From: a virus
Taxonomy: Duplodnaviria > Heunggongvirae > Uroviricota > Caudoviricetes
IMG/VR virus record: IMGVR_UViG_2529292834_000013
Direction: 5' to 3' (one strand)
DNA length: 11,931 bases
The translations under genes were made by a program, and so were the position numbers. Under the pieces are notes generated by a model, which saw only the letters and a list, made by a program, of their open reading frames with translations, ran no database searches and was not told the origin of the DNA. Of this stretch, positions 1 through 11,931 are shown in pieces. Position 1 is the stretch's first letter; the number at the start of each line of letters is the position of its first letter.

Positions 1-892
<892 letters not shown>

Positions 893-906
893 CTTATTGA
901 TTTAAA

Positions 907-952
907 TGGTGCCGATAATAGGAGTCGAACCTACGACCTTCGCATTACGAAT
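907..952 (-). other. 3' 46 nt of a tRNA-Thr(CGU) gene (thrW-like), including anticodon loop, T-arm and CCA end; att-site remnant, not a functional tRNA
   Basis: Reverse complement of 907-952 reads TTCGTAATGCGAAGGTCGTAGGTTCGACTCCTATTATCGGCACCA: anticodon CGT in a loop, T-stem GTAGG/CCTAT around TTCGACT, acceptor 3' strand and CCA. Sequence beyond nt 952 does not continue as D-arm or acceptor 5' strand. Confidence 0.65.
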
Positions 953-1031
953 TATAAGAATCCGCTTCTAATTCAAAGCATTACCCCATCAACACTGCGC
1001 TCACACGTCCCACCACATCAAAACATGTAAA

Positions 1032-1071
1032 GCCTTGCAAGCCATTGCGAGGCTTTATGTGTCTCAGTTTT
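1032..1071. terminator. Candidate hairpin with T-rich flanks on both strands (possible bidirectional terminator)
   Basis: GCCTTGCAA (1032-1040), loop GCCA, TTGCGAGGC (1045-1053): 9-bp stem with one G-U pair, followed by TTTATGTGTCTCAGTTTTGT; on the other strand the stem is followed by TTTACATGTTTT. Weak. Confidence 0.25.
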
Positions 1072-1335
1072 GTCCCACCTTTTATTACGACTTGCATAGC
1101 CAATGAAGATAAACGTGACGACAAACGGCGCAGCAATCTTCCTTTCTTTCACACTTTCCCAACCCAGCATGTATACTTTTCTGCCATAACTAAAGTGAAT
1201 GCCTGTTATGAGCAACAAACAGGCATTAGCGCCGCTAGCATATTAGCTACCATTCGACTGCCACACTTAAGATTGATTTCTTAAGTATAACCCGGTTTCT
1301 AATACTACTTATATATTCAGCTCTGAGATTCATTT

Positions 1336-4300
1336 TTATCTCGTAAAGCTAGTTTTATGACTTCCTGTTAGCTGACTGTCTTCATAATAAAATGCTCCAC
1401 TAAACTCCTGTCGACCATAATGATGACTTGATATGAGTGAGCCCCCTATAACGCCCTTTTCACCTAATAATGTCCAAACGATTTCAAAACCATTGTCCCT
1501 TAACATTGTTAAAAATGGTTCTTTTTTAACAAGTAGATGCGGCTTTGAAGCATATACAGCTTCAGCTGCAAAGCAAACCATAGTTCCATTTTCATCATTG
1601 AAGCTACCCTCTACTTCCCCACTTTTTAATCCCATCTTTTCAAAGATTAAGTTACTAGGCTTCAAAAAATTCAAAGTTTCTATTTTTGATTTGTCGAACT
1701 CCTCTTCCCACAAATAATTAATCGAAGTGACACTAACATCAGCTATCTTAGCTCCAGACTCCCGGTCTGTTACCGAAGTCCAGTCAGATCCACCATAATA
1801 ATCTGATTTAAAAGACTTAAATGCTTCGGACCAATAGTACTCCCTATTAAATAATTGGTATCTATCAGTACATTCCGGCATCCACCTGCCCATAAAGTCT
1901 TGAGCTATTGCCCAACATCTAAAATTTTCAAATTCTTCAACTTTAACGATATAACTTCTGATCTGATACCAAACCTCTTTTCGTGGGTGCCCCCAATCAT
2001 CGTTTCCAATAATTTTTGGTTCTTTCCATGATGGATGACTTTCTAATACTATCCATTCATCACCATTATCATCTTTAACTTCAATAAAAGCATATGAATT
2101 AGTTATAGTAGTAGAACTTTTAACCCAGTCTTCATTAGAGCAAGTCCAATCAAACACTTCATCATTAAGCCACCACATTTCTTTATTGCTTATTTTTTTC
2201 GTTCCAGTTTCTTTAAGTAAGATAGTGGGATCTATATCTCTTACGTAAGGCTCCCATGGCCCTTGGTATGGATTTTCCTTTCGTTCGTCACCATAACCTT
2301 CAAAACGAGTAAAATTATCGGCTAGCCTTGCCATGTATTCATAATAAGCAATCCATTGGGATTTTTTACCAATCCGTTCTTGGAATGCCTCTCTACGTCC
2401 ACGTCCAGTTCCTATTTGTTGGTCAAAATTACCATGCTTCTCCGGATCCCAACCAAGCTCTATAACACGATTGAATATAAATTGTTGAGCTAGTCGAAGA
2501 TCAAAGTGTTTATCAGTTTCCAGCAGATTATTATTATGATCCAGGTATGGCTCTATTTCATTTTCAAACTCACTTAACAGATCGTATGACAATGAATTCT
2601 TAAATAATTTCTTGCTCGCCTTTATTTCTTCCTGTGCTTTTCTACCGACCACACGACCAAATTTAATTCCTTCGCATTTATCATCATAAATGAAAGGATC
2701 TGTGGCATCATACAAGTCTTTTTGTTGATCAGTTAGTTTACATTTGAAAGTTTTAAAAACTTGCTTACGGTCAACAGGGGTTTCATTAAACTTGCAACCA
2801 GACCAATCAGAATGATTATAATTTGTTCCAATAGTATATCGTGAAAAGTCACCATCTTCCATAATAGAGCTCCAGAGTTCCCGATAAGGTTCTTTATCAT
2901 AAAGGGACTCTAGTTCCTCTTTTGAAGGAATCTTGTCAGGCCAAATGCTGTTGTAGGGTGGTCTAGTCTTGGATAATTCAATGCTTTCAAGTTCCAATCC
3001 AAGATGATTAGCAAATTCAATAATCTCTCTAGCATAATCTCTAAGTAATATATTTGGATACACATACTTAGAACAAAATACCTTTTGGTAAACAGTTTCG
3101 GCTAAATATTTTAGTTCTTTAATATTATCAGTTCGCAATGTACAGCCTAATGCAACTGCAAATATTCTTTCCCAAACGTAAGGATCATTTACACCATAAA
3201 ACTTATCAATTATTTTTCTCAATACAGGAATTCTTGGCTCGAGTAAACTCACTAAAGCCTTAGTTGAGCAATCTCGAAGTTCTCGGTTACTAGAAGTTAA
3301 AAACCAGCATAAACTAGTTGCAACTAGCTCGATTGACTCATCCGAAACAAAGCTTTTATCTGTTCTGGCCCATGCCCAATCGATTAGATGCCTAAATGCT
3401 GAGTCTTCACTATATTTATATTTAAGTTCTGTAGTCCAAAACGAATCTCGATTTGCCAAAGAATAATCTTTTAGCCAATCATGCAAGAAATTAGCATTAA
3501 AGGGATGGCCAACTAAACCTGAAATAGAGATCACTGCCTCGAGGAAATGATCAAAACTATCTTTAAATTTAAAAACATGTTCATTGATGAAAGGTCTAAT
3601 TTTTTCGAAATAAATAGCCTTAATATCGCGCCATATCAAGCTATCAATAAAGGCTTCTAGTAATTTAAGATTATTGCTGAACTCCGGCAGAAATTCATAA
3701 AGCTCTTTTTCATACCTTTCTGGCAATTGAATAGACAACGCCTCTACTATTCCCGATTTTATATAAAAATCACATTCATCATGAAAATATTTTTTCAGAC
3801 GACCATCAGGCTTAAATTCACTTTCGATATTTTCAACATCATTTAATAAAAAATTAACAGTTAAATGATCATCAAACCTTTCAAAAGCCACATAAACTAC
3901 TTCCTCAGTAGAATTATCATCATTTCTCACTATGCCTTTAGTCAATAATCCTTCGTCAATCAAGGCGCTGAGGAAGGTTTTATCAGCAACATAATCATTA
4001 ACTACAGATTGAACCACTGAGTGAGCATCTTTAAGTGAAATACTATTACGACCAATCTCTAATTTGAATTTTATGATTTCATTGAGAGCATCTTTAACAA
4101 GAGGAAAACTGGGATCGAATGCATATTTTTTTGGCGATGCTAATGATTTATTTACCCCTTCAACTAAAAAGTTAAAAATATTTGAAATCCCATTAAATCC
4201 AACAGGCACTTTGGTTAAACCATTTTTCTTAATGCCTTCACACAATAACTTAAGAAATAGAGGATTTTTAAACTCTGGATTAAGGTTAGGAGATGAAGGC

Positions 4301-5790
4301 CTCTCAATATTGTAATAATCATAAAATAGACTAACCGCTTCCAACTCAACGTTCTGGAATCCAATATGTTCATGAATTTCAAAATTATTTCGCACAACAT
4401 TCTCATGTGAAATTGTTACATTTCTATATGTTGTTCTGACTGACATTATCAGACCAAGCCATTCAAAGCATCTGATTTCATCGACAAAACTGTTAATATT
4501 GTCATTCCAGAATTTATTTCCATTACCTTCATTAATAGCATCAATAAAAACTAAGACTCTTTTTCCTGTTTTTTTGCCATATAAATTCAGTTTTTCTAGG
4601 AATTCACGAGAAGTGATTTTAAGCTGTAATCTCTTGAAGATTTGTGACCATGGAGATTCATCTGAAGTAAGTTGTTGCCCTAGTATGAGTAGTGAAGGAT
4701 ACCCAGAAGCAATTCGATTTTTAATCACATCAGCCAGTAAATGAGACTTACCAATTCCTGCTTTTCCTTCGAGAAGTAAGAATGGGTTGTTAGCCAACTT
4801 CACTGTTGTTGAATTAATGAATATACGTAATTCATTGCACGCATAGTCAAATTCCCGAAGCATTCGCAGAGTAGATGAATACTTATCACTGTAATGCTTG
4901 GTTTCACCTACTTGCTCTGACTTTTCTCGGAGTTCCCACAATATTGATACCGCTCCGCCAATAGCTGTCTGGCAGCTAGAAACATAGTTATTAAATTTAT
5001 TTATAGGGATTTCATCTAATTTAGAAAAATTAATCTCCTGATATATATCAGAAATTTCTTTTAAGGACTGGTTTATTTCAAATAATTCTGAGGAAATTAC
5101 ATCGCAACTATGTAATTTCTTTCCAGCGACCAGAAAGCTATCTATATGCGAATAAAATATTTTAGAAAAATCATTAGTTCTACCGAGGCCATCAAATATC
5201 TCTGCTATTTCTAGCTTTACGTTGAGTTCGGGTGTGTATCGACCTCCCAAGTCAGCTATTGCTTGACTATTTTTTTCATTTAACCAATCATCACTTAAGT
5301 GAAAAGTTAGTTTCTCATCTATAGACCGTAAAATAAGTTTGACTTGAATGAGCTCTTCATTAATATCGAATATTTTTTCTTTATACGTTTCTTCGATATG
5401 TAGCTTTTTTAACTTCGAACAATTATTGATTTTTAATGATAACATCCCATAAAAAAGGCTGAGTTGTTGTTGAGTTGGGGGAGTGACGCTTGGATATTCT
5501 TTGAACTTGTCTAATAACATCTCTTTGTCAGGGAACTCTTTAAAAAGGATGTACTCATTCAACATCTCAAACAATGGTTTAGAATGATAAAATGGAATTG
5601 CTCCACTTTCTACTGGATATGTTTCTTCAAACTCAATTGCCGTCTCTTCAATTAGTTGATATAATCTATCCACATATTTTTCTGTGGGGAATAATGCTTT
5701 CTTAATCCAACTATATCCTTCTTGAGAAATGAATTGATCAATAAGTTTAGTTGCTACATAAGTTGCCACTGTAATTGATATGGGTTCCAT
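1336..5790 (-). CDS. Large (1484 aa) STAND-class P-loop NTPase with unassigned ~330-aa N-terminal domain and ~1000-aa C-terminal region; candidate Avs/bNACHT-like antiviral sensor
   Basis: Single uninterrupted 4455-nt ORF. Walker A LLLEGKAGIGKSHLL (about aa 340-355), Walker B KRVLVFIDAINEG (about aa 410-422, D-[GA]-x-[DN]-E form), and a downstream hhhTxR-like LIMSVRTT (about aa 447-454). Shine-Dalgarno GGGAGAAG sits 6 nt upstream of the ATG. Visibly more AT-rich than flanking prophage DNA (not computed). Confidence 0.85.
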   Translation of the reverse strand: MEPISITVATYVATKLIDQFISQEGYSWIKKALFPTEKYVDRLYQLIEETAIEFEETYPVESGAIPFYHSKPLFEMLNEYILFKEFPDKEMLLDKFKEYPSVTPPTQQQLSLFYGMLSLKINNCSKLKKLHIEETYKEKIFDINEELIQVKLILRSIDEKLTFHLSDDWLNEKNSQAIADLGGRYTPELNVKLEIAEIFDGLGRTNDFSKIFYSHIDSFLVAGKKLHSCDVISSELFEINQSLKEISDIYQEINFSKLDEIPINKFNNYVSSCQTAIGGAVSILWELREKSEQVGETKHYSDKYSSTLRMLREFDYACNELRIFINSTTVKLANNPFLLLEGKAGIGKSHLLADVIKNRIASGYPSLLILGQQLTSDESPWSQIFKRLQLKITSREFLEKLNLYGKKTGKRVLVFIDAINEGNGNKFWNDNINSFVDEIRCFEWLGLIMSVRTTYRNVTISHENVVRNNFEIHEHIGFQNVELEAVSLFYDYYNIERPSSPNLNPEFKNPLFLKLLCEGIKKNGLTKVPVGFNGISNIFNFLVEGVNKSLASPKKYAFDPSFPLVKDALNEIIKFKLEIGRNSISLKDAHSVVQSVVNDYVADKTFLSALIDEGLLTKGIVRNDDNSTEEVVYVAFERFDDHLTVNFLLNDVENIESEFKPDGRLKKYFHDECDFYIKSGIVEALSIQLPERYEKELYEFLPEFSNNLKLLEAFIDSLIWRDIKAIYFEKIRPFINEHVFKFKDSFDHFLEAVISISGLVGHPFNANFLHDWLKDYSLANRDSFWTTELKYKYSEDSAFRHLIDWAWARTDKSFVSDESIELVATSLCWFLTSSNRELRDCSTKALVSLLEPRIPVLRKIIDKFYGVNDPYVWERIFAVALGCTLRTDNIKELKYLAETVYQKVFCSKYVYPNILLRDYAREIIEFANHLGLELESIELSKTRPPYNSIWPDKIPSKEELESLYDKEPYRELWSSIMEDGDFSRYTIGTNYNHSDWSGCKFNETPVDRKQVFKTFKCKLTDQQKDLYDATDPFIYDDKCEGIKFGRVVGRKAQEEIKASKKLFKNSLSYDLLSEFENEIEPYLDHNNNLLETDKHFDLRLAQQFIFNRVIELGWDPEKHGNFDQQIGTGRGRREAFQERIGKKSQWIAYYEYMARLADNFTRFEGYGDERKENPYQGPWEPYVRDIDPTILLKETGTKKISNKEMWWLNDEVFDWTCSNEDWVKSSTTITNSYAFIEVKDDNGDEWIVLESHPSWKEPKIIGNDDWGHPRKEVWYQIRSYIVKVEEFENFRCWAIAQDFMGRWMPECTDRYQLFNREYYWSEAFKSFKSDYYGGSDWTSVTDRESGAKIADVSVTSINYLWEEEFDKSKIETLNFLKPSNLIFEKMGLKSGEVEGSFNDENGTMVCFAAEAVYASKPHLLVKKEPFLTMLRDNGFEIVWTLLGEKGVIGGSLISSHHYGRQEFSGAFYYEDSQLTGSHKTSFTR

Positions 5791-5796
5791 GATTAG

Positions 5797-5804
5797 CTTC
5801 TCCC
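5797..5804 (-). promoter_or_regulatory. Ribosome-binding site of the large NTPase gene
   Basis: Minus-strand GGGAGAAG with a 6-nt spacer before the ATG at 5790-5788. Confidence 0.5.
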
Positions 5805-6312
5805 AACAATTAAATTTTTACCAAGCGTTTATGCTTTCCAATAATTATTACATCTCACCGTAAAACATATTTATATGGTTTTAAACCTATCTGTAAATCT
5901 TGACACCTTGGCAAGAACCTAATCCTACATTTTAATATCAATCTATATAATATCGCCAGCGTCATAATAATCGGGCTTGTCATAGTTAAGTATTCGCCTC
6001 CGATATCCCAATGAGATAAGTAAGTCATAAGTGTTATAAATGAAAAGGTTACATTTTTCAAAGAGTTATTATGATGGAATATTATTCAAAACGCAATGTA
6101 GCTGAAACGAGTCTGAGTTTAACATCCGCTCCTAGTACATAGTAGTCCTAGGGACAGTGGCGTAAAGTCATAGATGGCCGGTGGGAGGTGATGGAAATCC
6201 TCTCATGCAAAAAATACATAAAATCGATAACGGCTGGAAATCATTCAATACTCGCACTATCGAAAGTTCACCAGCCAACCGCGCACAATCTTGCATACGA
6301 CATGCTACGGTT

Positions 6313-6867
6313 TCATTTATCTCCGACCGGAAACTTCTTATACAGTGTCGATATACCAACATCATAGATGATCGCCACCTTCTGGCGAGGAACGCCTGAT
6401 GCAATTAATCGCCCGGCCTGCGCCCATTGTTCTGGTGTAAGTTTGGGACGACGTCCCCCAATTCGTCCCTGTGCGCGAGCAGCTTCCAGTCCAGCTTTTG
6501 TTCGTTCAACAATCAGTTCTCGTTCCATTTCAGCCAGGGCACCCATCACATGAAAGAAAAAACGCCCCATCGGTGTGCTGGTATCAATAGCATCCGTCAG
6601 GCTGCGAAAATTAACGCCACGTTCGCGCAACTCCTCAACCAGAATGACCAGATGCCGCATACTACGCCCCAGCCGATCCAGTTTCCAGACCACCAGAGTG
6701 TCACCTGCCGATAATGTCCTGAGCAGTTTTTTCAGTCCCGGTCTTTCGGACTTCGTACCGCTTATCTTGTCTTCAAAAATCAGTTCACATCCTACACAGT
6801 TCAACGCATTACGTTGTAGATCGGTGTTCTGGTCATTTGTTGATACGCGAACATAGCCAATAAGCAT
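6313..6867 (-). CDS. pin: Serine recombinase, DNA invertase of the Pin/Gin/Hin/Cin family (184 aa, apparently intact)
   Basis: Starts MLIGYVRVSTNDQNTDLQRNAL (catalytic Ser in VRVSTNDQ), has DTLVVWKLDRLGRSM and MGRFFFHVMGALAEMERELI, and ends with the HTH ...VAIIYDVGISTLYKKFPVGDK. Very close to e14 Pin / Mu Gin as I recall them. The ORF-track N-terminal extension (MASFLLLPGGST) is rejected in favour of the canonical MLIGY start at 6867. Confidence 0.9.
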   Translation of the reverse strand: MLIGYVRVSTNDQNTDLQRNALNCVGCELIFEDKISGTKSERPGLKKLLRTLSAGDTLVVWKLDRLGRSMRHLVILVEELRERGVNFRSLTDAIDTSTPMGRFFFHVMGALAEMERELIVERTKAGLEAARAQGRIGGRRPKLTPEQWAQAGRLIASGVPRQKVAIIYDVGISTLYKKFPVGDK

Positions 6868-6893
6868 GGTAGATCCCCCAGGTAAAAGCAGGA

Positions 6894-7391
6894 ATGATGC
6901 CATTTGCTCGTTATTTCTGCATTTTCATAAACCTTGGTTTGGGAGAAGGTGCTCCAGCTATTGGCGTTCCGTTCTTCTGGCCGTCCGCTGCAATGCCAAA
7001 TACTGTAATCGACAGCTGGTCCAGTATGGTGTTTTTGAAGTTCAACGGCGCGAAATTCTCTGCCACTGATTATCCTGTGCTGGCGAAAGTGTTTCCTTCG
7101 CTGGTATTACCTGAAGCCCGCGGTGATTTCATTCGTATCTGGGATGACGGGCGAGGTGCAGACGGTGGTCGCGAATTATTAAGCTGGCAGGCAGCTACAA
7201 ACTTTTCTCAGTTTGCCGGGAATATAGGCGAAGGGGCGGGACACGCAATTAACTTTCATGATGGCATCGCCGGAAATCAGCCAGGATTTTCACGATTTAA
7301 TTTCACCAGTAACTCTGTGGGTGATGGTGTGAATTTTGTTGCTGTCAGACCGCGAAATATTGCATTTAACTTTCTGGTGAGGGCTAAATAA
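6894..7391 (+). CDS. Phage tail-fibre protein, C-terminal variable (receptor-binding) domain, variant A; lacks a constant N-terminal shaft
   Basis: ORF contains GVPFFWPS...YPVLAKVFPSLVLPEARGDFIRIWDDGRGADGGR, the motif set of Mu S / e14 Stf-type fibre C-termini. Its stop overlaps the downstream tfa start (TAATG at 7389-7393). The first ~19 codons (MMPFARYFCIFIN...) lie inside the inverted repeat; the true translational start is uncertain. Confidence 0.65.
   Translation: MMPFARYFCIFINLGLGEGAPAIGVPFFWPSAAMPNTVIDSWSSMVFLKFNGAKFSATDYPVLAKVFPSLVLPEARGDFIRIWDDGRGADGGRELLSWQAATNFSQFAGNIGEGAGHAINFHDGIAGNQPGFSRFNFTSNSVGDGVNFVAVRPRNIAFNFLVRAK
6922..6947. other. gix/hix/pix-like 26-bp invertase crossover site (left)
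   Basis: TTTTCATAAACC-TT-GGTTTGGGAGAA: two 12-bp inverted half-sites around a 2-bp core, matching the TTnnnnnAAACC-NN-GGTTTnnnnnAA pattern of Gin/Hin/Pin sites. Confidence 0.6.
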
Positions 7392-7984
7392 TGAAACCTG
7401 TTTTTGATGAAAATGGGCTGGCTACAGTGCCGGGCGATATGCGTTGTTTTTATTATGATGCTGAAACATCTGAGTATACGGGCTGGTCTGATGAATATAT
7501 TAATACTGGCGTAAGTATGCCCGCCTGTTCCACTGGTATTGACCCTGGCGAAAACATTCCGGGAAGAGTGGCAGTATTTACAGGTAAGGGATGGCGCCAT
7601 GAAGAAGACCATCGCAATGAGACTGTTTACTTAATCGAAAATGGCGCAGCTGTTACAGTGGATTATATCGGTGCCATCAAAGACGGTTATGTCACGATTT
7701 CACCGTTAACGCCATACGATAAATGGGATGGTGAGAAATGGGTGACAGACACTGAGGCACAACACAGTGCCGCAGTAGACGCGGCAGAAGCACAGCGCCA
7801 GTCACTGATTGATGCAGCAATGGCTTCCATTAGTCTGATTCAGCTGAAATTACAGGCCGGACGGAAACTGACTCAGGCAGAAACAACCCGACTTAACGCC
7901 GTGCTGGATTACATTGACGCGGTGACGGCAACAGATACCAGCACCGCGCCGGATATCATCTGGCCTGAACTGCCGGAGGCGTAG
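7391..7984 (+). CDS. Tail-fibre assembly protein (Tfa/U-like), variant A
   Basis: 197 aa, translationally coupled to the fibre domain upstream; C-terminal DTSTAPDIIWPELP motif shared with Tfa chaperones. Confidence 0.8.
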   Translation: MKPVFDENGLATVPGDMRCFYYDAETSEYTGWSDEYINTGVSMPACSTGIDPGENIPGRVAVFTGKGWRHEEDHRNETVYLIENGAAVTVDYIGAIKDGYVTISPLTPYDKWDGEKWVTDTEAQHSAAVDAAEAQRQSLIDAAMASISLIQLKLQAGRKLTQAETTRLNAVLDYIDAVTATDTSTAPDIIWPELPEA

Positions 7985-8384
7985 GCCATTCAATATCGGG
8001 TGCTGTTGACGTATCAACACGCATCAGCAGCACACGGTATTTCTTCCATTGGGTGAGAGTTGTAGCTTCTTCATCAGTTGCGATATCAGCATCAACAGCA
8101 TCCTGACGCCAGGATATTTCACTGTCAGCTTTTTCCCGTAATTGGGATTTTTTAACTTCAGCAATAGCTATTAATTCCTTTTTGGTCGGCTGAGGAATAT
8201 CTATCAGTGCTGGTTTTCCATTCAGTGTTCCAATCTGTTTTCCTGGTGGAATATCCATAAATAACTTCTTATGTTCTTCCTCACTGACTATTACACCATC
8301 ATCAGGCCACAGACCTGATGCCTCAAATTTTTCTTTCTCCGATATGGGGAAAAAGCCATTTGCTTTAGCGCTCCATACGTACAT
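7956..8384 (-). CDS. Tail-fibre assembly protein (Tfa-like), variant B
   Basis: 142 aa; N-terminus MYVWSAKANGFFP and C-terminus WKKYRVLLMRVDTSTAPDIEWP are typical of e14/lambdoid Tfa proteins. Convergent with variant A, with 29-bp 3' overlap. Confidence 0.8.
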   Translation of the reverse strand: MYVWSAKANGFFPISEKEKFEASGLWPDDGVIVSEEEHKKLFMDIPPGKQIGTLNGKPALIDIPQPTKKELIAIAEVKKSQLREKADSEISWRQDAVDADIATDEEATTLTQWKKYRVLLMRVDTSTAPDIEWPTPPAVQAR

Positions 8385-8385
8385 A

Positions 8386-8721
8386 TCAATACCCCACCGC
8401 TATAATGTCCACATTAAATCCCCCGGGACCTGCCTGCCAGATGCTGGCCCCTGTTAATGATTTTGTTTGATGAACAACCGCCACATTTGCTGGCGATTGT
8501 GTTTCAGTTGTTACAGTACCGATATCATTCCAGTTAATTGAGATGGAATAGTTCGTTGTTGTAAACGACCGGGGGAAAGTTATGTGTCTTACATTGGTGC
8601 CGACAGGAAATCCAAGATAAACACGCTGAATTATCATTCCTCCAGGTAACATAACCCAGTTAGCACCTTCTCCAAAACCAACATTTATGAAAATGCAGAA
8701 ATAACGAGCAAATGGCATCAT
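8386..8721 (-). CDS. Phage tail-fibre protein, alternative C-terminal variable domain, variant B; lacks a constant N-terminal shaft
   Basis: Begins with the same repeat-encoded peptide MMPFARYFCIFINVGFGEGA as variant A, then diverges completely; sits directly upstream of and coupled to tfa variant B. Identity rests on position and architecture, not a recognised motif. Confidence 0.55.
   Translation of the reverse strand: MMPFARYFCIFINVGFGEGANWVMLPGGMIIQRVYLGFPVGTNVRHITFPRSFTTTNYSISINWNDIGTVTTETQSPANVAVVHQTKSLTGASIWQAGPGGFNVDIIAVGY
8668..8693. other. gix/hix/pix-like invertase crossover site (right), one half-site degenerate
   Basis: TTCTCCAAAACC-AA-CATTTATGAAAA on the + strand: the left half fits the consensus; the other half reads AAATG where AAACC is expected. 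Confidence 0.5.
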
Positions 8722-8747
8722 TCCTGCTTTTACCTGGGGGATCTACC

Positions 8748-9266
8748 ATGCTTATTGGCTATGTTCGCGTATCAACAAATGACCAGAACACCGATCTACA
8801 ACGTAATGCGTTGAACTGTGCAGGATGCGAGCTGATTTTTGAAGACAAGATAAGCGGTACAAAGTCCGAAAGGCTGGGACTGAAAAAACTGCTCAGGACA
8901 TTATCGGCAGGTGACACTCTGGTTGTCTGGAAGCTGGATCGGCTGGGGCGTAGTATGCGGCATCTGGTCATTCTGGTTGAGGAGTTGCGCGAACGTGGCG
9001 TTAATTTTCGCAGCCTGACGGATGCTATTGATACCAGCACGCCGATGGGGCGTTTTTTCTTTCATGTGATGGGTGCCCTGGCTGAAATGGAACGAGAACT
9101 GATTGTTGAACGAACAAAAGCTGGACTGGAAGCTGCTCGCGCACAGGGACGAATTGGTGGACGTCGTCCCAAACTTACACCAGAACAATGGGCACAAGCC
9201 GGACGATTAATTGCATCAGGAGTTCCTCGCCAGAAGGTGGCGATCATTTATGATGTTGGCGTATAG
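8748..9266 (+). CDS. pin: Second copy of the Pin-type DNA invertase, inverted relative to the first; frameshifted near the 3' end so the HTH recognition helix is missing (172 aa; probably defective or a pseudogene)
   Basis: About 98% identical to the left copy through ...QKVAIIYDVG, then V-stop instead of ISTLYKKFPVGDK. Substitutions P->L (KSERLGLKK) and V->A (NCAGCE). SD-like GGGGGA about 8 nt upstream of ATG 8748. Confidence 0.8.
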   Translation: MLIGYVRVSTNDQNTDLQRNALNCAGCELIFEDKISGTKSERLGLKKLLRTLSAGDTLVVWKLDRLGRSMRHLVILVEELRERGVNFRSLTDAIDTSTPMGRFFFHVMGALAEMERELIVERTKAGLEAARAQGRIGGRRPKLTPEQWAQAGRLIASGVPRQKVAIIYDVGV

Positions 9267-9359
9267 TCTTTGTATAAGAAGTTTCCAGTCGGAGATAAAT
9301 GAAACCGTAGCACGTCGTATGCAAGATCGTGCTGCGGTTTATGCTTATCACTTAAAGAC

Positions 9360-10229
<870 letters not shown>

Positions 10230-10310
10230 CTAAGTCTTTGAATTTACATAGTACAAAAAAGATACTTTTTCCTCATAATGTGAATTAATTTTATGTTTCG
10301 TTTTATGATT

Positions 10311-10376
10311 GGACCGGTCTCGAAAACCGGAGTAGGGGCAACTCTACCGGGGGTTCAAATCCCCCTCTCTCCGCCA
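10311..10376 (+). other. 3' 66 nt of a tRNA-Ser(CGA) gene (serU-like), anticodon arm to CCA; att-site remnant, not a functional tRNA
   Basis: GGACCGGTCTCGAAAACCGGAGTAGGGGCAACTCTACCGGGGGTTCAAATCCCCCTCTCTCCGCCA: anticodon stem CCGGT/ACCGG with loop CTCGAAA (anticodon CGA), long variable arm, T-arm GGGGG-TTCAAAT-CCCCC, acceptor 3' strand and CCA. Upstream sequence does not provide the acceptor 5' strand or D-arm. Confidence 0.65.
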
Positions 10377-10951
10377 CTTTATCAATGACTTATCTCCCGA
10401 CTTCCCGCCTTGCTTTTCCTAAACAGAACAATCGTAGAATATTCTTGAAGGGTTAGATCGTCACTGTTTTCTGTTCGATACTGTGACATTCAGCACTTGA
10501 TTCGCTATGGATCTGACAGGAAGGTTTCGAGCGAAAATCTGCAGTTATTCAGTCGTTTTCTTATCGGTCACCATTATTCTTTTAGACATTGATCCTACAA
10601 AGCTGCCGCAAAGTTGGTGGTGGGAACTGAAGTTGCGTAGAGAAGGGGTCAATACCCGGAGGCAAACATGGGCTGGCAAAAGTGTAGCGGTATTAGGCGA
10701 AGCTATTTAGCCTAGTTATATTTTATGAAAACTTGATATCATATAAGTGTCTTACTTATTGGCTGTAAATAAGTTTTTCCTAAGGAATTGTTTCTTGAGT
10801 ATCATTTGTAACTGTAACGGAATTTATAATCCTTTGCTTTATTGTTACGGTATTTTTTATCACACCCTATTTTTTATGTGGTTTTTTATACTGAAGTTTG
10901 GCAAAGTGAACTTTATATGCATATACTTCATCCTAGTTTCAGTTAAATTGG

Positions 10952-11704
10952 GTGGATGATATGGCAACTACATGTTCAGTTATATTGATTTTGGAGTCCT
11001 TTGATGTTTATTTAGGAAAAGAGATTGTGTTTCTGGAGAGAGGTTCATCTGTACTTGTCGACTCTAGCTCTAGAGATTTTTTCCTGACATATCCTGAAAG
11101 AGTGATAGTGGCGGATTTTGGCGCTGAGTTTATTAGTCGCTATTTGAAAGCTAATAACTTAAGGGATATTTCTGATTGTAGGGAATATCCATCTTATTTA
11201 AAAATAAACTTTGCTGACTTCAGTTTAATTAAAGGATTAATTAGTTGGGCTAATCACTGTGCTGAATACATAGAAATTTTTGATGAGTCTATTGCTTTTA
11301 CATGTCTCTCTGCATTTTCTTCTGAAAAACAATTTGGAGTATTTCTGTTTGGATGTTTGAAAAGCACAGGGGCTAAAGTTAAAACGATTATTCATACGGA
11401 TTTATCTGCACCATGGCGTCTTAAGGATATATCATCAAGATTATATCTCAGCGAAAGTTTACTAAAGAGGAAATTGAAAGAAGAGGGGGTATCATTCAGT
11501 AAGATCATACTTGATGAGAGGATGCAAATGGCTGAATATTTACTCAGCACTCGTTGTTATCCTATTAGTAAAGTAGCTAAGGTCTGTGGTTATGCCAGTG
11601 TCTCATACTTTACTTATGTATTTAGACGTTATTTTGGTGTTTCTCCAAGTCAATACTCTCAGAGGAGTTCAGAAAGTAAAATTCTTACTCACCAGGGAAT
11701 CTGA
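10952..11704 (+). CDS. AraC/XylS-family transcriptional regulator (YdeO/AppY/EnvY-like)
   Basis: C-terminal double HTH: PWRLKDISSRLYLSESLLKRKLKEEGVSFSKIILDERMQMAEYLL...VAKVCGYASVSYFTYVFRRYFGVSPSQY. AT-rich. The true start may be the second ATG at 10961 (better spacing from GGTGG at 10946-10950). Confidence 0.8.
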   Translation: MDDMATTCSVILILESFDVYLGKEIVFLERGSSVLVDSSSRDFFLTYPERVIVADFGAEFISRYLKANNLRDISDCREYPSYLKINFADFSLIKGLISWANHCAEYIEIFDESIAFTCLSAFSSEKQFGVFLFGCLKSTGAKVKTIIHTDLSAPWRLKDISSRLYLSESLLKRKLKEEGVSFSKIILDERMQMAEYLLSTRCYPISKVAKVCGYASVSYFTYVFRRYFGVSPSQYSQRSSESKILTHQGI

Positions 11705-11708
11705 TCAT

Positions 11709-11931
11709 TGTTCTTGCCCCCTTATTTCCAGACAGGGGGTGTATCTTAAGTTAACGTTACCCGCTGACGTCGATATTCTCGCAGAGAGCGATAACCCAAC
11801 GCACTGTGCGGATGGTTTTCATTGTAATGTTCGATCGCCACTGCAAGATTATGCAATGCCGTTCTTACATTCGGTTTCGGCATGAACGCGATGTAGTCTT
11901 CCTTCATCGTTTTCACGAACCTTTCTGCCAT
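11709..11931. mobile_element. End of an IS2-group (IS3-family) insertion sequence (partial; continues beyond the window)
   Basis: Terminal sequence TGTTCTTGCCCCCTTATTTCCAGAC resembles the IS2 terminus as I recall it (TGGATTTGCCCCTATATTTCCAGAC), followed by the transposase 3' end. Exact terminus is approximate. Confidence 0.55.
11746..11931 (-). CDS. IS3-family (IS2-like) transposase OrfB, C-terminal 61 codons; partial, upstream part outside the window
   Basis: Translation ...[55 protein letters not shown] carries the conserved [10 protein letters not shown] motif of IS3-family transposase C-termini. Confidence 0.75.

Follow-up and report, generated by a model that had tools for sequence, protein, structure and literature searches.

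Phages Mu and P1 diversify their tail fibres by means of the invertible G and C segments, in which the gene for a serine invertase (Gin or Cin) lies beside a segment that has a 26-bp site of the hix/gix/cix/pix type at either end, and alternative fibre C-termini, each with its assembly gene, are fused across such a site to a constant N-terminus. Both phages keep the constant part and a late promoter, so that inversion alters the virion, and the long inverted repeats of P1 (about 0.6 kb) are fibre coding sequence and not duplicated invertase genes. Here we analyze a related locus in an 11,931-nt stretch of caudoviral DNA (IMG/VR record IMGVR_UViG_2529292834_000013; hereafter the window), in which two opposed fibre-tip open reading frames (ORFs), each followed by a tail-fibre assembly (Tfa) chaperone gene, are bracketed by two copies of the invertase gene pin. 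It is a structural variant of a well-known system, with two invertase genes and no constant part, and we propose that it is probably an orphaned remnant of an e14-family prophage that is still inverting and whose fibre ORFs are left with no route to expression.

Among the described systems, the P segment of the e14 prophage of Escherichia coli K-12 (stfP-tfaP-tfaE-stfE-pinE-mcrA) resembles the window in gene order, in its two opposed tips each with a Tfa, in the 29-nt overlap of the tfaP and tfaE 3' ends, in its near-identical crossover site pix (TTTTCATAAACGTTGGTTTGGGAGAA), and in the presence of a defence gene downstream of pin. The shared start peptide discussed below is already visible in the K-12 annotation, where the annotated start of the stfE pseudogene b1157 (MPFACYFFIFINVGLGEG...) is the second ATG of an ATGATG pair that the window shares. 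Unlike the window, e14 has a 95-aa constant part in stfP, a single pin and a short inverted repeat, whereas the window has no constant part, a second, inverted pin with Avs2 cargo, and a repeat of 671 nt. The tips themselves have diverged from those of K-12, with tip A showing 43.5% identity to StfE by BLASTP and tip B being related to the StfP tip at the level of the Pfam family only, a kinship that rests on the description of the latter by Kirigo et al. (PMC12529663). Measured against the Gin/Hin/Cin/Pin type as a whole, the window has the adjacent invertase, the inverted pix sites, the inversion and the opposed tip and chaperone modules; it lacks the constant N-terminus outside the segment, which is present in K-12 and in the prophage loci L003, L007 and L089 introduced below.

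Organization of the locus and its inverted repeat

In the ORF listing of the window the two tip ORFs occupy positions 6894-7391 of the plus strand (165 aa, beginning MMPFARYFCIFINLGLGEGA) and 8386-8721 of the minus strand (111 aa, beginning MMPFARYFCIFINVGFGEGA). Their start codons fall within the inner ends of the inverted repeat I1, they share the opening MMPFARYFCIFIN(L/V)G(L/F)GEGA, and BLASTP aligns them over the first 26 residues only, the remainder being unrelated, as a preliminary description made from the letters alone had stated. The same description placed this start antisense to the invertase 5' leader, and rightly so: a distance of 27 nt separates the MMPF ATG at 6894 from the opposite-strand ATG of pin at 6867, which places the former in the pin 5' leader, and each arm of the repeat has such a pin 5' region. 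Tip A proper (6930-7391, plus strand) is a collar-type C-terminal receptor-binding module, recognized by PHROG profiles, by phage fibre C-termini and by its BLASTP match to StfE, and shares 95-99% identity with the C-terminal ends of gp22 from phage 500465-2 and gp25 from mEp043. Tip B (8386-8685, minus strand, its ORF extending upstream into the leader to 8721) is a gp53-like C-terminal module (Pfam Gp53-like_C), and the PHROG tail-fibre profiles match both tips solely by their C-terminal ends.

Each tip is followed by its chaperone gene, tfaA at 7391-7984 on the plus strand (Pfam Caudo_TAP, E 1.4e-27; phrog_105) and tfaB at 7956-8384 on the minus strand (Caudo_TAP, E 6.6e-33), and the convergent 3' ends of the two overlap by 29 nt (7956-7984). 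On side A the junction reads TAATG (7389-7393), the TAA stop (7389-7391) overlapping the tfaA ATG (7391-7393), and on side B it reads TGA-N-ATG, the stop at 8388-8386 being separated by 1 nt from the tfaB ATG at 8384-8382; judging by these junctions, the translational coupling of each tip to its own Tfa that had been described is real on both sides. Equally, the reported lack of a constant shaft holds, as tblastn searches with four different types of constant fibre N-terminus from relatives recovered none in the window (best E 0.48), and tail genes are likewise absent from the locus. A perfect palindrome (TGTTGA-CGTA-TCAACA, repeat pair I4) lies at 8004-8019, just past the tfaA stop codon, and no Rfam family was matched in the window. 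In several genomes PGAP labels the tip A fragment (L001 7831-8292) "integrase", and it gives the same label to the full-length 248-aa fibre of L003 (6717-7463); this is a recurring annotation error on fibre sequence, which could mislead automated surveys.

The arms of I1 (6283-6953 and 8662-9332) are 671 nt in length and 96% complementary with 27 mismatches, and represent a long repeat rather than a chance match. The left arm, as delimited by the repeat search, takes in the pin 3' flank, the whole of pin, its 5' leader, the crossover site pixL and 6 nt of fibre sequence. Its invertase gene pinE (6313-6867, minus strand), on the Avs2 side, is intact and codes for a 184-aa serine invertase, equal in length to K-12 PinE, with a Resolvase domain (Pfam, E 1.2e-51) and a complete HTH_7 domain, in agreement with the PGAP annotation of an identical locus. 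The copy on the PD-T4-3 side, pinE' (8748-9266, plus strand, from the ORF listing and Pfam), codes for only 172 aa, because a TAG at 9264-9266 ends the frame 12 codons early, so that positions 1-34 of the 45 in the HTH_7 profile are matched. The end of pinE' (9252-9266) reads ...DVGV-TAG where the intact copy reads ...DVGISTLYKKFPVGDK; the stop arises from a cluster of substitutions and lies ahead of the recognition helix of the helix-turn-helix (HTH) domain. This allele is annotated at 519 nt in all genomes with the double-pin layout, as against 555 nt in the intact prophage L003. In a patch at 8732-8811, spanning the pin' leader and roughly the first 60 coding nucleotides, nine positions that differ between the arms in other double-pin strains (e.g. 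L001) match the left arm in the window; this looks like gene conversion to the left-arm state, which would mean that the arms also interact by homology.

Natural inversion at the pix sites

The segment is bounded by two inverted 26-bp sites, each having TT at its centre and differing little from the e14 sites of K-12, which presumably fit the wider hix/gix/cix consensus. The left site, pixL (6922-6947, plus strand), reads TTTTCATAAACC-TT-GGTTTGGGAGAA, with its central TT at 6934-6935, and encodes F-I-N-L-G-L-G-E of fibre A; the right site, pixR (8668-8693), reads TTTTCATAAATG-TT-GGTTTTGGAGAA on the minus strand and encodes F-I-N-V-G-F-G-E of fibre B.

The same 3.3 kb is found in 18 of 5426 complete E. 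coli genomes, always at one chromosomal site beside paoBCD, and in these the segment is present in both orientations: 11 align with the window end to end, one is interrupted by an insertion sequence (IS), and the remaining six, out of 17 intact loci, are flipped. The flipped genomes align to the window only across 6277-9339, with their flanks swapped; the 519-nt pin stays beside PD-T4-3 and the 555-nt pin beside Avs2. The few bases near pix that differ between the arms, namely 6932/6933 in the outer half-site and 6941 in the inner half-site, allow the point of exchange to be located. In all ten fetched loci the outer bases (CC or TG) stay with the flank while the inner base (G or T) travels with the tip, the flipped genomes carrying reciprocal hybrid pix sites, and every exchange must therefore have occurred within 6934-6940, a 7-bp interval around the central TT. 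Furthermore, both orientations are found in each of three flank haplotypes defined by their Avs2 and left-pin protein alleles, which implies at least three inversion events. These observations show that the segment still inverts, by site-specific recombination at the pix centre.

We considered whether the two orientations might instead stem from RecA-dependent recombination between the 671-nt arms, or from errors of assembly, with no part played by Pin. The length and 96% identity of the arms, along with the converted patch at 8732-8811, would suit homologous exchange. Nevertheless, the exchanges in all six flipped genomes are confined to the one 7-bp interval containing the central TT, none falls in the long stretches of identity within the pin genes, and three independent events falling within about 8 of 671 nt would have a probability near 2e-6 if exchange were uniform; the flipped genomes are, moreover, complete assemblies from different projects. 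We accordingly regard this explanation as very improbable.

As pinE' is truncated within its HTH domain, the flipping must be driven by the intact left pin or by an invertase acting in trans. In Gin and Cin systems the Fis-dependent recombinational enhancer is located in the 5' part of the invertase gene, and inversion here is presumably catalysed by the left Pin, or by another enzyme of the Pin family in trans, together with Fis and such an enhancer. At the protein level the effect of a flip is slight, consisting of an L/V swap at residue 14, while residue 16 moves with its tip. Numerous draft contigs (L013, L015, L016, L018, L026, L027, L030, L035, L036 and others) stop at pix, 60-130 nt ahead of the start of pin, which fits with mixed orientations in the sequenced cultures breaking the assemblies.

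Joining of two prophage right ends

To reconstruct the origin of the double-pin layout we turned to relatives of its two halves. A single-pin relative, L003 of strain Z1323HEC0423, is 97.8% identical to window positions 6929-11931 and has the order tape-measure, baseplate, ymfQ, 248-aa fibre, tfaA, tfaB', tip B', pin, PD-T4-3 (GIY-YIG), AraC. The other half is matched by L089, an e14-family prophage of strain WS0115A at the same pao site, which has an apparently complete tail region and ends ...fibre-[segment]-pin-Avs2; window positions 838-6953 are 95.7% identical to its right end. The left homology block thus runs up to 6953 and the right one from 6929 on, and as the two overlap only at 6929-6953 the two parents meet within pix. 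Taken together, the alignments show the window to be a chimera, in which the right ends of two prophages, joined at pix, face each other head to head across a single invertible segment, and the single-pin relatives display the ancestral state. Given that only the crossover site is shared at the joint, we infer that the fusion was a Pin-catalysed exchange between pix sites that are not normal partners, which may have come about by deletion between two nearby elements or by capture of a circle.

The following course of events would account for the locus. In the intact relatives a fibre gene with a constant part enters the segment via pixL, and flipping of the segment by Pin would fuse one of the two tips, with its own Tfa (TfaA for A, TfaB for B), to that constant part, leaving the unfused tip beside pin, where its frame, read upstream, by chance meets no stop before an ATG antisense to the pin leader. 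A second e14-family right end, carrying pin and then Avs2, would have been joined at pix in inverted orientation, replacing the constant part and the tail genes. With a second pin in place of the constant part both tips would become pin-proximal, and both would thereby gain the accidental leader MMPFARYFCIFI. The preliminary description was correct in that the repeat encodes the shared start; what it missed is that the repeat measures 671 nt, instead of about 26 bp, only because a second pin has replaced the constant fibre part.

We found a single origin of the double-pin layout (the 18 genomes, with one locus), and among 80 Pin loci from other species no other double-pin layout was detected within 3.5 kb. 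A wider spacing is seen in Trabulsiella odontotermitis (NZ_JNGH01000101.1, loci L019 and L022, about 156.5-162.2 kb), where a P2-like prophage has several fibre tips and tfa genes enclosed by two divergently oriented pins at a distance of 4.65 kb; the contig has Ns and duplicated pieces, and a second layout with two invertases may be present there. Many of the 18 double-pin genomes are from diarrhoeal stool isolates or known enterotoxigenic E. coli (ETEC) strains. In one ETEC genome (NZ_CM180509.1) the locus is interrupted by an IS100-family element, and in strain I4 (L090) the pin on the Avs2 side is truncated by IS26 beside a floR resistance region; the island is being eroded by insertion sequences.

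Both pins are followed by defence genes, Avs2 (AVAST type 2; 1336-5790, minus strand; PADLOC E 0) downstream of the left pin and PD-T4-3, a LEM-3-like GIY-YIG gene (9360-10184, minus strand; PADLOC E 2.7e-140, and Pfam), downstream of the right. As the same slot holds mcrA in K-12, Avs2 in WS0115A, and PD-T4-3 with AraC in Z1323HEC0423, it appears to be a variable site for defence cargo in e14-family prophages. The succession of pin and Avs2 recurs on the 44.8-kb circular lambdoid replicon pCE-O153H30-A (L088; NZ_CP172337.1, 44,831 bp, a circular "plasmid"), which has gam, bet, exo, xis and int beside Avs2, pinE and a fibre gene, and which has the look of a lambdoid phage genome, excised or episomal, and not of a plasmid. 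In the window the Avs2 module adjoins a C-terminal fragment of a tyrosine integrase (341-892), and the 44 nt at 889-932 are 100% identical to the end of the pCE-O153H30-A integrase (L088 4347-4390); this stretch may be an att core. An attempt to read the order int fragment-Avs2-pin as that of a circular phage (attP) found no support, the pCE-O153H30-A integrase having no DNA homology beyond the terminal 44 nt.

The shared opening peptide and the fate of the tip ORFs

In full-length fibres of relatives the two tips are fused to four unrelated constant parts, always at the motif (Y/N)LG(L/F)GEG(A/S). Tip A is joined to an e14-type 95-aa N-terminus (MHRIDTKTAQ...KTALE, then NLGLGEGA and the tip) in the 248-aa fibre of L003, to the shaft of the 501-aa fibre of the P2-like Escherichia phage 500465-2 (...LLAYLGLGEGA/PAIGV), and to that of the 310-aa side fibre of the lambdoid phage mEp043 (...ARTNLGLGEGS/PAIGV), and tip B caps a full-length 241-aa fibre in prophage L007 (...ILTYLGFGEGA/NWVML). 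The preliminary description had turned on the existence of full-length fibre genes ending in these tips; they do exist, and their junctions fall exactly on the crossover site. By these comparisons the pix-encoded NLGLGEGA is the hinge through which e14-like, P2-like and lambdoid phages attach the tips to shafts unrelated to one another. Phage 500465-2 (NC_049343) is like the window in that its fibre ends in tip A (98.6% identity), joined at LGLGEGA; downstream come tfa, tfa', a silent tip whose ORF likewise opens with MMPVSCYLCIFLNVGLGE, and an invertase gene. It differs from the window in being an isolated phage, complete and with only one invertase, whose fibre has a long shaft.

Upstream of pix the full-length fibres carry their constant part and not MMPFARYFC, and homology to them begins at N13, about position 6930. 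The codons before this point, MMPFARYFCIFI (6894-6929, plus strand, with a mirror at 8686-8721 on the minus strand), are the antisense of the pin 5' leader. The peptide that had been described as one unit is, by this comparison, better read in two parts, of which NLGLGEGA is genuine, pix-encoded fibre hinge, and MMPFARYFCIFI only read-through into the antisense of the pin leader. We surveyed the leaders in 80 Pin loci from other Enterobacterales; 25 distinct leaders of the PinE type have ATGCCA at a constant distance from the start of pin. Read from this ATG towards pix, 12 leaders are open, eight contain one or two stops and one is out of frame, and the residues between "MP" and the pix-encoded "CIFxN" vary (FARYF, FAGRTV, RRGRM, NSGRTV, SEWKL, PERNN). 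The letters that are conserved coincide with DNA elements, namely the outer pix half-site and, on the pin strand, a TGGCAT motif, which we take to be part of the pin -10 region; such a pattern looks like that expected of non-coding DNA constrained for other reasons. The E. coli-type leader is hydrophobic (mean Kyte-Doolittle hydropathy 0.96), and we considered a reading as a signal peptide; we discarded it as evidence, since the peptide is unconserved and a T-rich antisense strand yields hydrophobic codons by default.

A consensus scan of 6200-9400 detected no sigma-70-like promoter reading into either MMPF ORF (3 sites against a chance expectation of 5.1), and AGGA stands 0 or 3 nt from the two ATGs of the ATGATG pair, a poor Shine-Dalgarno spacing. 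Between PD-T4-3 and the co-directional fibre B the minus strand forms a stable hairpin with a U-rich tail (9302-9340, z -3.7), which disfavours read-through from PD-T4-3 into fibre B. The hairpin also lies between the convergent pin' and PD-T4-3 genes and straddles the outer boundary of the repeat, with a weaker mirror at about 6275-6312, and is probably a bidirectional terminator. It is likely, then, that the tip ORFs are not expressed at useful levels, in which case flipping would switch only residues 14 and 16 of two orphan ORFs.

A precedent for expression from such a start comes from K-12, where inversion of the P segment is reported to fuse the stfE start to the gp53-like StfP tip, giving StfE2 (Kirigo et al., Nucleic Acids Res 2025, PMC12529663). 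In that study T2 is reported to be kept from adsorbing when StfE2 is over-produced, and resistance to T2 is reported for cells fixed in the inverted e14 state; the authors present neither a native promoter nor a transcript or translation of stfE2 (PMC12529663). In light of this, the tips and their chaperones might be translated from the pin-leader ATG as stand-alone receptor-binding proteins that mask receptors as StfE2 does, and, the StfE2-type form being available in both orientations, the segment would constitute a third defence module between Avs2 and PD-T4-3. Such a reading draws on fibre B having the build of StfE2, with its pin-leader start MMPFARYFCIFINVGFGEGA, pix-encoded hinge and Gp53-like_C tip, and a leader 80% identical to that of K-12 over 20 aa by BLASTP; on the intact and chaperone-coupled ORFs; on the defence genes as neighbours; and on the hydrophobic E. 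coli-type leader. On the other hand, tip B has no BLASTP similarity to the K-12 StfP/StfE2 tip beyond the 20-aa leader, stops interrupt 8 of 21 related leaders, some open leaders are hydrophilic (e.g. MPRRGRM and MPPERNN), any T-rich antisense strand is expected to give a hydrophobic peptide, and only one origin of the double-pin layout was found. Together with the expression signals and the scope of the K-12 evidence, this makes stand-alone proteins unlikely. This had been the first of three roles proposed in the preliminary description, and what survives of it is the StfE2 precedent; the promoter, Shine-Dalgarno and leader evidence speaks against the rest.

StfE2 arises in one K-12 orientation only, whereas in the window the equivalent ORF exists in both, and a further variant would see the double-pin layout as an e14 StfE2 defence fixed in the ON state, the second pin leader giving both tips and their chaperones a stand-alone start. 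We consider this variant, argued from analogy with K-12, to be improbable; if it were true, the locus would hold a receptor-masking module between Avs2 and PD-T4-3, and flipping would swap only the leader and promoter context of each cassette.

The second role that had been proposed, a silent reservoir, would have the tips kept for pick-up by phages or prophages with the LGLGEG/pix hinge, changing their host range. At 95-99% identity, tip A recurs with the same hinge in three unrelated phage types (P2-like 500465-2, lambdoid mEp043/mEp213 and e14-like), a mosaic distribution which attests to such exchange, and the window is itself the product of a pix exchange between two elements. Yet the benefit would fall to phages and not to the host, so that mosaicism is explained and retention is not; no specific exchange involving the window locus was seen; and tip B has no match among 50,697 isolated phage records. 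As the reason for keeping the tips we think a reservoir rather doubtful, with little likelihood; it is plausible only as a side effect, and to that extent the proposal stands.

Of the three roles offered, that of pure remnants fits best, and an orphaned, still inverting remnant is the reading that we favour, with several observations weighing against it. Leaders of the E. coli/Shigella type have an open frame, as has that of phage 500465-2; all four segment ORFs are intact; and the locus is flanked by two defence genes. The promoter scan probes the consensus only, and, by analogy with the StfE2 report (PMC12529663), the pin-proximal ORF may be natively expressed in E. coli. Finally, across the double-pin clade the segment is identical save for one SNP and homopolymer errors, a clade too young for selection to be measurable. 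We did not count as decay the frameshifts in TW10598, B2C, E1739 and E8, all of which are 1-nt homopolymer deletions and look like sequencing errors.

The locus is explained by the textbook biology of Pin/Gin-type switches together with the K-12 stfE annotation, and as such opens no new question. Should pin-proximal tips prove to be adsorption blockers, it would offer a natural test case, in that the leader-fused form of both tips is present in either orientation and the segment has a defence gene on each side. On the reading of an orphaned remnant, it is a natural case of an inversion system that has outlived the deletion of its output, a switch left without anything to act upon, and it documents pix exchange between different prophages as a way in which chimeric islands may be built.

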